A program made the translations under genes and the position numbers. Positions 49,879-53,158 of a stretch of 64,000 bases of DNA are shown piece by piece; the stretch's first letter is position 1, and every line of letters starts with the position of its first letter. Origin of the DNA: an uncultured Pelagibacteraceae bacterium (GTDB taxonomy: Bacteria > Pseudomonadota > Alphaproteobacteria > Pelagibacterales > Pelagibacteraceae); contig CACBIY010000002.1 in assembly GCA_902539445.1 (NCBI GenBank), positions 104,005 through 168,004 on the forward strand, read 5' to 3'. The notes beneath the pieces are model-generated. The model was not told the DNA's origin. It made no database searches and was given only the letters and a program-made list of their open reading frames with translations.

Positions 49879-50205
49879 ATGACTTACATAGTAAATGATA
49901 AATGTATTAAATGTAAATTGATGGACTGCGTCGAGGTTTGCCCTGTCGATTGTTTTTATGAAGGAAAAAATATGCTTGTAATTAAACCTGATGAGTGTAT
50001 AGATTGTGGCGTTTGTGAACCTGAATGTCCTGTAGATGCAATTAAAGCTGATATAGAGCCAGGGATGGAAAAGTGGTTAGAAATCAATAAACAGTATTCT
50101 GAAATCTGGCCTAACATAAGTGAGAAAAAAGATCCACCTTTGGATCATGAGAAGTATAAAGATGAGCAAAATAAGTTTGAAAAATATTTTAAAGAAAACC
50201 TTTAA
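49879..50205 (+). CDS. fdxA: 7Fe-type ferredoxin
   Basis: [18 protein letters not shown] and [12 protein letters not shown] motifs. Confidence 0.95.
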
Positions 50206-51031
50206 AAAAAAAACAAAATCAAAAATCAAAAAAAAACCAATCAAAAAAGTTAAAAAAGCAAAAATTATCAAATTAAAAAAAGTAAAGAAAATTTCAAAGA
50301 TTACAAAAAAAATTGAAAAAAAAGGCAAACAAAAAACCGAAGTTCAAAACGAAAATTTAAGAATTCCCAAGAGCAATGAAATTAAGCCTGAAATCAAAAA
50401 GGTAAAAAAACAAAATTCTGAAAAAAGAGAATATAAGATTAAAGATTATATCGTATATCCTAAACATGGTGTAGGTCAAATTACAGAATTTAAAAAAATT
50501 AATATAGGTGGGATAGATGTTGAAACGTATATTATTAAATTCGAGAAAGACAAGGCTAATGGAATGGTACCAGTTAATAAACAATCTCATTTACGAGCTC
50601 TTTCCACAATTAATCAAGTCAATAAAAGTATTTCAATTTTAAAAAGCAAACCAAAGATTAAAAGATCTATGTGGAGTAGAAGAGCCCAAGAATATGAGGC
50701 CAAAATTTCCTCTGGTAAAATTTATGAATTAGCTGAGGTAGTAAGAGATCTAAATAAAGGTGACGATCTAATGATTGATCAATCTTATAGTGAAAGACAA
50801 CTTTTTGAAAAAGCCTATGATCGAATTCTTTCAGAATTCCAAATTGTTTTAAATGTTTCAAGAGAAGATACACAAAAAAAACTTGATAAAGCGCTCAAAA
50901 GAAATCTAAATAAGGAGTTAAAGGAAGAAGATAAAAGTACTAAAACATCTGATACAACTACAACTACAACTACAAGTGAATTAACTGTTGAAGAGCCAAT
51001 TTCAGAGGATGATGAACAAATAGAAGAATAA
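50162..51031 (+). CDS. carD: CarD/CdnL family RNAP-binding factor with Lys-rich N-tail and acidic C-tail
   Basis: [14 protein letters not shown] and WSRRAQEY motifs; follows fdxA as in alphaproteobacteria; start at MSKISLK inferred. Confidence 0.88.
50954..50977 (+). repeat. (ACAACT)x3+ACAAGT repeat encoding a poly-Thr tract in the CarD C-tail
   Basis: Read directly from sequence. Confidence 0.8.
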
Positions 51032-51073
51032 AAAAAACGCCTCTCACACATAAAGTTATGAGAAGCGTTTTTT
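51029..51073. terminator. Bidirectional intrinsic terminator between carD and the basic-peptide gene
   Basis: A-run, ACGC-CTCTCA ... TGAGA-AGCG, T-run; A/T tracts on both sides. Confidence 0.75.
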
Positions 51074-51091
51074 AAAAAGAATACTAAGTTA

Positions 51092-51169
51092 TTATCTTCT
51101 TCTTCTTTTTTTAGCTTTTTTCTTAGCTTTTTTCTTAGCCTTCTTTGCTTTTTTTCTTCTCTTAGGCAT
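51092..51169 (-). CDS. 25-aa protamine/histone-H1-like basic peptide MPKRRKKAKKAKKKAKKKAKKRRRR (not in ORF track)
   Basis: ATG with GGGAG Shine-Dalgarno 6 nt upstream, double TAA stop, downstream terminator and upstream TTGACA. Confidence 0.8.
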   Translation of the reverse strand: MPKRRKKAKKAKKKAKKKAKKRRRR

Positions 51170-51185
51170 CTTTAGCTCCCTTTTT

Positions 51186-51249
51186 AGTTAAACGAATCAA
51201 ACTGATTCGTAATTAACTTATTTTTATTTTTTTATACACGTTATGTCAA
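51186..51249 (-). promoter_or_regulatory. Candidate sigma70 promoter (TTGACA-17-TAAAAA) plus ACGAATCA/TGATTCGT palindrome upstream of the peptide gene
   Basis: -35 at 51249-51244, -10 at 51226-51221, inverted repeat 51192-51210 containing two GANTC sites. Confidence 0.55.
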
Positions 51250-51368: not shown

Positions 51369-53069
51369 TTAATAAAGTTTTTCTAAATCATCTTTATATT
51401 TATCTAAAATTTTTTTTCTTTTTAATTTTAATGTTGGTGTTAACATTCCATTTTCAATTGAAAATTCTTCCTCAATTAATTTAAATTTTTTAACTTTTTC
51501 AACTAAAGATAAAGTTTTATTTAAATTTTCTAAAAAAATTTCAATTTCTTTTCTATTTTCGGTGCTTTCAGAAACAATTAATGCAACTAAATAAGTTTTT
51601 TTGTCTCCATAAACAAAACTTTGTTTAATTTTTTCATTTAAACATAATAAATTTTCAATTTTAGATGGTGAAATGTTATCTCCACCAAGAGTAACTATTA
51701 TCTCTTTCTTTCTATCAGTAATTTTTAAATTTCCTTCTTTTGTGATCTCCCCAATATCACCGGTGTGCAACCAACCATTCCTTATGACATCATCCGTCTC
51801 TTTTTTCATATTCCAATATCCAAGCATTACATTTTCACCTTTGACTAAAATTTCACCATCCTCAGCTATATTTACCTGATTTGTTTTAAAAGGAGGTCCT
51901 ACTGTGTCGATTTTGATTTTTTCAGGAATATTACAACTTACAACAGGTGAGGCCTCTGTAAGACCATAACCTTGGAGGGTAGGCAATCCAATTGCGTTTA
52001 AAAATTCTCCAATTTTTTGGTCTAAAGCACCGCCCCCAGACACAAAGGCTTTTAGTTTTCCACCGAACTGATTTTTTATCTTTTTTCTTACTAGTTTTTC
52101 ACAAAAAAAATTAACTAATTTTTCTTTTAAAGTTAAATTCTGATTATTTAGTTTTTTGATACCAAGGGAGATAGTGGATAATATCAGTTTTTTTTTGAAC
52201 CCTTTTTGTTTTGAAAAATTTATTGAAATTTTGCCATACAAATTTTGATAAAATCTTGGGACAGCTGTCATAATCGTAGGTTTTGCAATGGACATATTGG
52301 ATAATAACTTCTCTAGACTTTCAGCATAATAAATTCTTGCACCAAGTGAAATTTGAACAAATTGAACTGCATGCTCATATGAATGAGATAATGGTAACCA
52401 TGTTAAAAAAGTAGGTTCACCATCCTGAACTAATTGATTTAATATTGCTTGAGCTCCCTCACAATTTGATAAAATTCCTCCATGACTAAGCATTACCCCT
52501 TTAGGATTACCAGTCGTTCCGGATGTATAAATTATACAAGCAAGATCTTTTCTTTCAAGATTTTGATTAAAACTTATATGAGTATCTGATTTCTTTTTTT
52601 CTAAATATGCATCGAATATATTTTCTACATTTTCAACTCTTTCATTTATATTTTCAATAGATAAAACTTTAATCTCTTCTGAAATAAATTTTTCAATTTT
52701 TTTTAATTGGATTTCATTAGAAACAATACAAATTTTTGGCTTACAATCATTAATGATGTATTCATAATCTTTCTCTGAATAAGTTGTAAATAGTGGAACC
52801 GTTACTCCACCTGCATTCATAATCGATATATCAGAGATAAGCCACTCTGGTCGGTTTTCAGATAATAGTATACATCGGTCTCCATCAGCTAAATTTGTTC
52901 TTAAGTATTCAGACAAAATTTGAATTTTTAACGCAACTTGTTCCCAAGTAAAAAAATTTTTTTCATTTTCTTTTAACCATTTTAAAAATGGCCTATCGGC
53001 AACTGAGTTTATTTCTTTATACTTGGAAAAAAAAAGTTCTACTAAACTGTTTATTCTACTTAATTGCAT
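51369..53069 (-). CDS. Long-chain fatty acid-CoA ligase (AMP-binding)
   Basis: YTSGTTGNPKG, GYGLTE, GWLHTGDIG and TDRKK motifs. Confidence 0.92.
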   Translation of the reverse strand: MQLSRINSLVELFFSKYKEINSVADRPFLKWLKENEKNFFTWEQVALKIQILSEYLRTNLADGDRCILLSENRPEWLISDISIMNAGGVTVPLFTTYSEKDYEYIINDCKPKICIVSNEIQLKKIEKFISEEIKVLSIENINERVENVENIFDAYLEKKKSDTHISFNQNLERKDLACIIYTSGTTGNPKGVMLSHGGILSNCEGAQAILNQLVQDGEPTFLTWLPLSHSYEHAVQFVQISLGARIYYAESLEKLLSNMSIAKPTIMTAVPRFYQNLYGKISINFSKQKGFKKKLILSTISLGIKKLNNQNLTLKEKLVNFFCEKLVRKKIKNQFGGKLKAFVSGGGALDQKIGEFLNAIGLPTLQGYGLTEASPVVSCNIPEKIKIDTVGPPFKTNQVNIAEDGEILVKGENVMLGYWNMKKETDDVIRNGWLHTGDIGEITKEGNLKITDRKKEIIVTLGGDNISPSKIENLLCLNEKIKQSFVYGDKKTYLVALIVSESTENRKEIEIFLENLNKTLSLVEKVKKFKLIEEEFSIENGMLTPTLKLKRKKILDKYKDDLEKLY

Positions 53070-53073
53070 AATT

Positions 53074-53158
53074 TGGTGGGCGAAGAGAGAATCGAACTCT
53101 CACTTCTTGCGAAACACGATTTTGAGTCGTGCGCGTCTACCAGTTCCGCCATTCGCCC
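53074..53158 (-). tRNA. tRNA-Leu(CAA), CCA encoded
   Basis: GGGCGAA/TTCGCCC stem, CACGA-CT CAA AA-TCGTG anticodon arm, variable arm. Confidence 0.97.

Follow-up and report, generated by a model that had tools for sequence, protein, structure and literature searches.

A conserved lysine/arginine-rich micro-gene beside carD in Pelagibacterales, with a translation start that in Pelagibacter is complementary to the rhtB hairpin loop

SAR11 bacteria (Pelagibacterales), which have very few regulators and serve as a model for genome streamlining, are the most abundant heterotrophic bacterial group in the marine plankton. Here, we report an unannotated micro-gene for a 25-residue (25-amino-acid [aa]) polycationic peptide in a 64,000-nucleotide (nt) stretch of an uncultured Pelagibacteraceae genome (GenBank assembly GCA_902539445.1, contig CACBIY010000002.1, positions 104,005 to 168,004, forward strand; hereafter, the window). 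The gene lies on the minus strand between carD and an acyl-CoA ligase-like gene and has orthologs across the order; in the genus Pelagibacter (g1), its translation start complements the loop of a hairpin RNA, rhtB (Rfam RF01814), a motif previously without a target.

The locus

The open reading frame (ORF) encodes MPKRRKKAKKAKKKAKKKAKKRRRR, in which 13 lysines and 6 arginines make up 19 of the 25 residues (76%); the residues are limited to M, P, K, R, and A, with T, S, G, and V as sparse additions in orthologs. It is framed by promoter, leader, Shine-Dalgarno (SD), and terminator signals (Table 1). The −35 hexamer is kept as TTGACA(T) at all loci of Pelagibacter, of the other genera of its family (f1), and of the sister family f2. 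Two overlapping −10 candidates follow it, one of them an alternative from the promoter scan, and the −10 block AAAAAAATAAAAAT is conserved across Pelagibacter; transcription would start a few nucleotides downstream.

Every lineage has the leader hairpin: genera g8 and g10 form it with G-U pairs, and g5, g6, and g7 use a longer stem, AUCAC...GUGAU, that is shifted in position. Both families retain the succession of TTGACA, an A-rich −10 stretch, the 5′ motif AACGAAUCA, and then the hairpin. The stem is built differently in different genera while AACGAAUCA stays constant, which indicates that the structure is conserved at the RNA level, and its place near the predicted mRNA 5′ end makes it plausibly an mRNA stabilizer. 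The motif itself is constant in sequence in the two families even outside the stem. The constant GAATC within it conforms to GANTC, and contig C9 of the window's genome carries a gene for a CcrM-type methyltransferase (G000:C9:19667-20326, 238 bits); the motif may represent the transcription start region or a methylation or regulator site.

Downstream, the terminator scan found one terminator where 0.1 was expected, with the stem kept at all Pelagibacter loci. Its position directly against the carD stop codon (51031) makes it common to the two convergent genes. A weak ctRNA_pT181 match at this place is the shared terminator hairpin itself. The terminator lies 19 nt past the micro-gene stop codon and the next gene, carD, is convergent, a layout that does not correspond to a cis-acting leader peptide or attenuator.

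The first-pass annotation of the window had described this 25-aa ORF with 19 Lys/Arg residues, a GGGAG ribosome-binding site, a perfect TTGACA, and a terminator shared with carD, all of which were recovered from the sequence and the scans. It had also listed tandem TAA stops; these are present in the window and are not conserved among relatives, in which the stop codons read TAG TAA, TAG TCA, or TAG TTT.

Table 1. Features of the micro-gene and its surroundings, in window positions
Feature	Position	Strand	Description
carD (CarD/CdnL-type)	50120..51031	+	Lys-rich N-terminal extension; convergent neighbor, synteny anchor
Bidirectional intrinsic terminator	51073..51032	-	17 pairs, 5 GC; T-run
Second stop codon, TAA	51091..51089	-	Tandem stop
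Stop codon, TAA	51094..51092	-	Tandem stop
Polycationic-peptide coding sequence	51169..51092	-	25 aa; ATG ORF, translation of the window
Translation initiation region, GGGAGCUAAAGAUG	51180..51167	-	SD GGGAG at 51180..51176, 6-nt spacer, AUG; candidate site of rhtB-loop pairing
Leader hairpin, ACGAAUCA-GUU-UGAUUCGU	51210..51192	-	5′-proximal; two GANTC sites; −7.6 kcal/mol
Constant 5′ motif, AACGAAUCA	51203-51210	-	
Putative transcription start site	~51213-51215	-	
Alternative −10, AAAAAT	51225..51220	-	Promoter scan; 18-nt spacer
−10-like TAAAAA	51226..51221	-	17-nt spacer from TTGACA
−35 hexamer, TTGACA	51249..51244	-	Sequence and promoter scan
Proposed transcription unit	51249..51032	-	Promoter to terminator
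Acyl-CoA ligase-like gene	51369..53069	-	566 aa; upstream neighbor; stop ~120 nt before the micro-gene promoter
tRNA gene	53077-53158	-	Rfam RF00005, 58.5 bits

Conservation and coding signature

A GC content of 29% makes AAA/AAG-rich frames easy, and the ORF is short and of low complexity, as a chance open frame in A-rich noncoding DNA would be. However, it is the sole ATG-initiated ORF of 17 to 60 aa with at least 70% Lys/Arg in the 1.1-Mb genome, and five third-order Markov genomes contained no such ORF, which argues against a chance frame. Orthologs were sought with DNA patterns and carD synteny, since a peptide-alignment profile missed even the window's own copy (low complexity). An ortholog convergent to carD was present in 18 of the 18 Pelagibacter loci with enough DNA (17 to 35 aa), in 22/22 loci of the six other f1 genera (21 to 50 aa), and in all nine loci of family f2 (84 to 85 aa; MEELKVIFAKARKKAKKKAAPKKK...RRKKRR). 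Lengths thus span 17 to 85 aa overall (17 to 50 aa in f1), with all differences in whole codons. The ATG, SD sequence, frame, and stop are conserved over the two families, as are the N and C termini (MAKRRKKA and KKRRRR in f1); the orthologs are 60 to 86% Lys/Arg and are built of AKKK or AAPKKK units, with the f2 form made from AAPKKK repeats.

Codon-level comparison points to translation. Among 17 phylogenetically independent same-length pairs, 42 codon differences were synonymous and 30 nonsynonymous (11 of the latter Lys-Arg exchanges), where random single-base changes would be only 19% synonymous. By codon position the differences numbered 16, 26, and 60, concentrated at position 3, and the spacing of successive GCN triplets was in phase in 309 cases (309/31/20, modulo 3). 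AAG supplies 26% of the Lys codons in the orthologs versus 13.8% genome-wide, and no A-run reaches 11 nt, versus 21% expected with genomic codon usage. Slippage occurs on AAA-lysine runs, and the placement of AAG so that A-runs are avoided fits selection against poly(A) slippage. Arginine is encoded by AGA in 229 of 229 codons, and alanine by GCT in 75%.

We conclude that the micro-gene is almost certainly real and very probably translated; the fixed start, SD sequence, frame, and stop, the synonymous excess, and the weight of differences at position 3 leave the chance-frame explanation effectively refuted. The first-pass annotation had read the locus as a complete expression unit for a polycationic peptide and had proposed synteny and codon-level conservation as the check; both the order-wide orthologs beside carD and the codon tests bear that reading out.

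The gene has gone unrecorded. In 29 further families of Alphaproteobacteria, no comparable ORF was found at a distance of up to 1.5 kb from carD, and an exact look-up of ten variants in a collection of 15 billion proteins returned none. A homology search with the 85-aa form returned two unnamed metagenome fragments only; the 25-, 50-, and 85-aa forms matched nothing in Pfam (E up to 10) or NCBIfam, and PDB sequence searches gave nothing meaningful. A product of this kind is expected to escape both trypsin-based proteomics and gene callers with length cutoffs. A universally conserved, strongly signaled SAR11 gene missing from annotations and from a collection of this size represents an overlooked component of the cell biology of these bacteria.

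Complementarity to the rhtB hairpin RNA

In Pelagibacter, the block from the SD sequence to the AUG (GGAGCUAAAGAUG) is invariant and is a perfect complement of the 13-nt loop of RF01814 ("rhtB sRNA," a small RNA). The 13-nt core (GGAGCTAAAGATG, comprising SD sequence, spacer, and ATG) is 100% invariant in 25 distinct Pelagibacter leaders, in which neighboring positions are conserved at 40 to 90%, and the exact 14-mer is present twice in most genomes of the genus. The second site in the window's genome lies on another contig (G000:C1:203116-203160) and is a full-length RF01814 match on the opposite strand; at locus L077 (1679..1599, minus strand), the match scored 74.9 bits (E = 3e-14; gathering threshold, 55 bits). 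The apical loop AUCUUUAGCUCCC (13 nt) is the exact reverse complement of GGGAGCUAAAGAU, and the micro-gene start is the genome's only perfect loop complement of at least 14 nt besides the antisense of the sRNA gene itself. This complementarity, in our view the most informative feature of the locus, was missed by the first-pass annotation.

The 2009 description by Meyer et al. (PMC2704228) gives the motif a bulge in its hairpin, a conserved loop, and, in about half of cases, poly-U; it was published as an orphan, with no assigned function or target. The partner locus of the micro-gene is a bona fide member of this motif, which is often followed by poly-U and in most genomes adjoins rhtB. The complementarity of its loop to the SD-AUG region of a hidden ORF is absent from PMC2704228, and literature searches found no other report of it.

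For this pairing, the RNAduplex energy of −30.7 kcal/mol ranked second of 147,130 windows scored (mean, −7.4; standard deviation, 3.5), and the first-ranked window requires a 15-nt bulge. With unfolding costs included, the cofolding free energy change was −17.4 kcal/mol for one cognate pair and −18.3 kcal/mol for a second, compared with −1.0 ± 2.0 when the mRNA was shuffled. The prediction leaves the loop 99.8% unpaired, and the predicted duplex with the peptide mRNA unwinds the entire hairpin.

The hairpin also carries a strand signal. Across the inner stem of 19 hairpin variants, the Rfam strand gave 56 Watson-Crick pairs, 18 G-U pairs, and 2 mismatches, versus 56, 0, and 20 on the other strand, and outer-stem pair 10 covaries (U-A/A-U); the G-U pairs and covariation show selection for the hairpin as an RNA, on the strand antisense to the micro-gene. 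This bears on a reading in which one DNA-binding protein recognizes the shared 13 to 14 bp as a double-stranded operator, or in which they are the relic of an inverted duplication, with no RNA-RNA pairing. Identity that extends past the loop into ATGGCTAA suggests common descent, and the lower stem was likened to an inverted repeat by Meyer et al. (PMC2704228), as such a reading would have it. Yet selection acts at the RNA level on the antisense strand, and the position of the shared block is exact at both sites, in the unpaired loop at one and on the SD-AUG at the other; more than 145 genomes have it without variation, although its flanks drift. We therefore judge an operator or relic very unlikely as the explanation.

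The two elements were counted with strict patterns in 172 Pelagibacter genomes that were at least 90% complete: the hairpin was present in 145, the matching ORF leader in 155, and both in about 131. No RF01814 match above the cutoff was found outside Pelagibacter, where the orthologous genes use start regions such as GGGAGAAAAGATG and GGGAGGAACGGAGATG. On these sequence data, we regard pairing between the rhtB loop and the micro-gene start as likely to be functional. It would give the rhtB motif, an orphan since 2009, its first concrete target, and the pair is among few candidate trans-acting RNA regulatory interactions in SAR11.

Several other matches were set aside. Fourteen-mers with one mismatch outside Pelagibacter are chance matches within coding regions. 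A 13-nt copy of GGAGCTAAAGATG found in several genomes (G000:C12:18126-18139, minus strand) is antisense to the aconitase motif KTSLAPGS, a coding coincidence; this near-match has the same polarity as the sRNA and thus is not a target. GCUCCC recurs, likewise conserved, downstream of the hairpin; this copy is where the rhtB ORF begins (ATG CTC CC.), not a second seed.

Leaders from lineages that lack the rhtB sRNA (loci L106 to L114 in g5/g7 and L021 to L029 in f2) carry CUCC or GCUCC 12 to 15 nt upstream of the SD sequence. This element could sequester the SD sequence within the same transcript, as a possible cis-acting equivalent of the trans-acting loop of Pelagibacter.

Genomic context of the hairpin

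The rhtB hairpin is preceded by a conserved extended −10 element (TGnTAT) on its own strand. In 13 of 16 aligned genomes it ends 8 to 20 nt before the start codon of a LysE-family gene (PF01810, 71 bits) on the same strand. LysE-family members are exporters of basic amino acids. In the window's genome and in genomes G044 and G134, a T-run or other sequence follows the hairpin in place of the exporter; the window's genome has the hairpin and T6 with no LysE/rhtB gene adjacent, and a LysE paralog of 29% identity is encoded elsewhere. Retention of the hairpin without its usual cis gene argues for a role in trans. The nearest gene downstream of the hairpin in the window's genome is a 230-aa porin-like ORF ~525 nt away, and a DUF2805 gene is the conserved divergent neighbor of the hairpin in all genomes. 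The LysE-family exporter gene that usually follows the hairpin corresponds to "rhtB" in Meyer et al. (PMC2704228).

The arrangement admits a reversed direction of control, as a duplex that unwinds the whole hairpin could also carry regulation from the peptide mRNA to the exporter. Taken to its end, the transcript would be mainly a regulatory RNA or sensor, in which the ORF reports the supply of Lys- and Arg-tRNA and the start region opens the hairpin of the LysE-family leader, with the signal running from peptide mRNA to rhtB. The closeness of the hairpin to the exporter start in most aligned loci, the predicted unwinding, a basic-amino-acid exporter as the target, and an ORF that is 76% Lys/Arg would all fit. 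It sits poorly with purifying selection on the peptide order-wide where the rhtB hairpin is absent, with the adjacent LysE gene missing in the window's genome, and with an exporter that has no assigned substrate; we consider a mainly regulatory transcript quite unlikely.

Proposed function

We propose that the window holds an independent, strongly signaled transcription unit for a translated 25-residue polycation, and that the peptide serves as a generic counter-ion, comparable to a histone H1 tail or a protamine, which would bind and compact DNA, RNA, or both. In Pelagibacter, its synthesis would be controlled posttranscriptionally: the 13-nt apical loop of the rhtB hairpin would pair with SD sequence, spacer, and AUG of the peptide mRNA and occlude ribosome binding without Hfq. 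Since LysE-family exporter mRNAs carry the hairpin as their 5′ leader in most genomes, the pairing may act reciprocally on exporter expression there. The sequence data show the gene with its conservation and coding signature, and the complementarity with its co-occurrence, RNA strand, and energetics; from these we infer the expression of both RNAs and the repression, and from composition and tolerance of length changes the binding target of the peptide. A polycation under rhtB antisense control, taken as a whole, is the explanation we favor, with moderate confidence.

Hfq (PF17209) was undetected in six genomes of the genus (the window's genome and the closed genomes G013, G065, G044, G056, and G073). 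The window's genome encodes three HU/IHF-family genes.

Composition and tolerance of length suggest a generic DNA- or RNA-binding polycation, for which we put the chances at a little better than even. The C-terminal tails of H1, protamines, and AlgP- or Hc2-type KPAA/AKKK proteins have repeat composition, extreme charge, and variation in repeat number in common with the peptide, and the 85-aa f2 ortholog resembles an H1 tail; the f1 forms differ in being far smaller (17 to 50 aa), with conserved MAKRRKKA and KKRRRR ends. Because the sequence is of low complexity, homology to H1 tails or protamines cannot be demonstrated. The label of an H1- or Hc1/Hc2-like protein in the first-pass annotation holds for the Lys/Ala-rich composition and finds no match in Pfam, NCBIfam, or PDB. 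Nucleoid condensation and ribosome binding, as suggested in that annotation, would be candidate roles.

The peptide might instead be a dedicated small ribosomal or ribosome-associated protein filling an rRNA groove. Its size and charge resemble those of tiny basic ribosomal proteins such as eL41, bTHX, bS22, and bL37, which are ~24 to 33 aa long and more than 50% Lys/Arg, with fixed length and a specific sequence, and a strong promoter and SD sequence, highly biased codon use, universal presence in the order, and conserved termini would suit such a role. However, the SAR11 peptide varies over a five-fold length range within one order through gain and loss of repeats, unlike structurally fixed ribosomal proteins; it has no match to ribosomal family models or in NCBIfam, Pfam, or PDB, and the gene lies outside ribosomal operons. 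The length range favors a generic polycation over a stoichiometric ribosomal protein, and we regard a ribosomal role as unlikely.

The closest parallel is found in Chlamydia, in which the start of the mRNA of a Lys-rich, H1-like basic protein, Hc1 (HctA), is occluded by the loop of a trans-acting hairpin sRNA, as we predict here. Loop 1 of that sRNA, IhtA, has been shown experimentally to occlude the hctA AUG (PMC3469542, PMC4355289). The systems differ in that Hc1 has no sequence homology to the peptide and is ~125 aa long versus 17 to 85 aa; IhtA pairs over 6 to 7 nt around the AUG and not the SD sequence, in contrast to 13 to 14 (up to 19) nt over both SD sequence and AUG; in SAR11, the partner sRNA mostly occurs as an exporter mRNA leader; and SAR11 bacteria are free-living, without a developmental cycle. 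The AAPKKK repeats of f2 and the analogy with the IhtA/hctA pair, together with the tolerated five-fold change in repeat number, favor a nucleic acid-binding polycation over a fixed ribosomal component. If our proposal is true, it would be a second independent case of the IhtA/Hc1 logic, in a free-living bacterium.

A second candidate parallel is ScvA of Coxiella burnetii, an unusually small basic peptide with a suspected role in chromatin condensation (Heinzen 1996, cited in PMC13568565). It is likewise tiny, basic, and stand-alone, with the differences that its sequence is unrelated and that it is stage specific and belongs to an intracellular pathogen. ScvA is richer in Arg and Gln than the SAR11 peptide, and to our knowledge, no sRNA partner is known for it.

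A small ORF with an sRNA over its SD-AUG region also matches the architecture of type I toxin-antitoxin systems, in which an antisense RNA encoded in trans would block translation of a small toxic peptide; overproduced polycations are often toxic, and HctA is lethal in Escherichia coli (PMC3469542). The peptide, however, has no hydrophobic or transmembrane segment, its gene occupies the same syntenic slot throughout a streamlined order, and the sRNA is lacking from six genera and from family f2, all of which carry the peptide; together, these points make a type I-like pair highly improbable.

Some observations weigh against a polycation under rhtB control. The 13-nt core is co-invariant at both sites, with no compensatory covariation seen, and variants in the flanks are uncompensated: in G189 and G171 the hairpin reads GGTT against GGCT in the target, and in G087 the loop ends in ..CUCCG against a target GGGAG. 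An inverted partial duplication of the 5′ end of the gene could have left the complementarity as a relic. The hairpin is usually the cis leader of rhtB, and its conserved loop might serve rhtB alone. Conservation of the peptide order-wide without the sRNA means that the sRNA is not essential to peptide function. Homology of the peptide to nucleic acid-binding families is not detectable, and its binding partner is purely inferred.

In an extended form of our proposal, the peptide would be a core, abundant counter-ion of nucleoid or RNA, with its synthesis wired to a LysE-type basic-amino-acid exporter through contact between a leader loop and an SD sequence, mRNA to mRNA. We hold this form only tentatively and think it rather doubtful. 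If the exporter link is functional, it would tie the handling of basic amino acids to the synthesis of a nitrogen-expensive Lys/Arg peptide, giving an Hfq-free circuit that couples Lys/Arg economy to the packaging of chromosome or RNA in a nitrogen-streamlined cell.

Neighboring features

CarD frames are 210 to 333 aa long in all Pelagibacterales loci (core, ~160 aa) and mostly 165 to 270 aa in other Alphaproteobacteria. The Lys-rich extension of CarD is a second polycationic element, adjoining the micro-gene. On the other side, the tRNA gene lies just upstream of the acyl-CoA ligase-like gene (Table 1); a Plastid-ycf2 match at the same position on the opposite strand is the mirror image of this tRNA gene.
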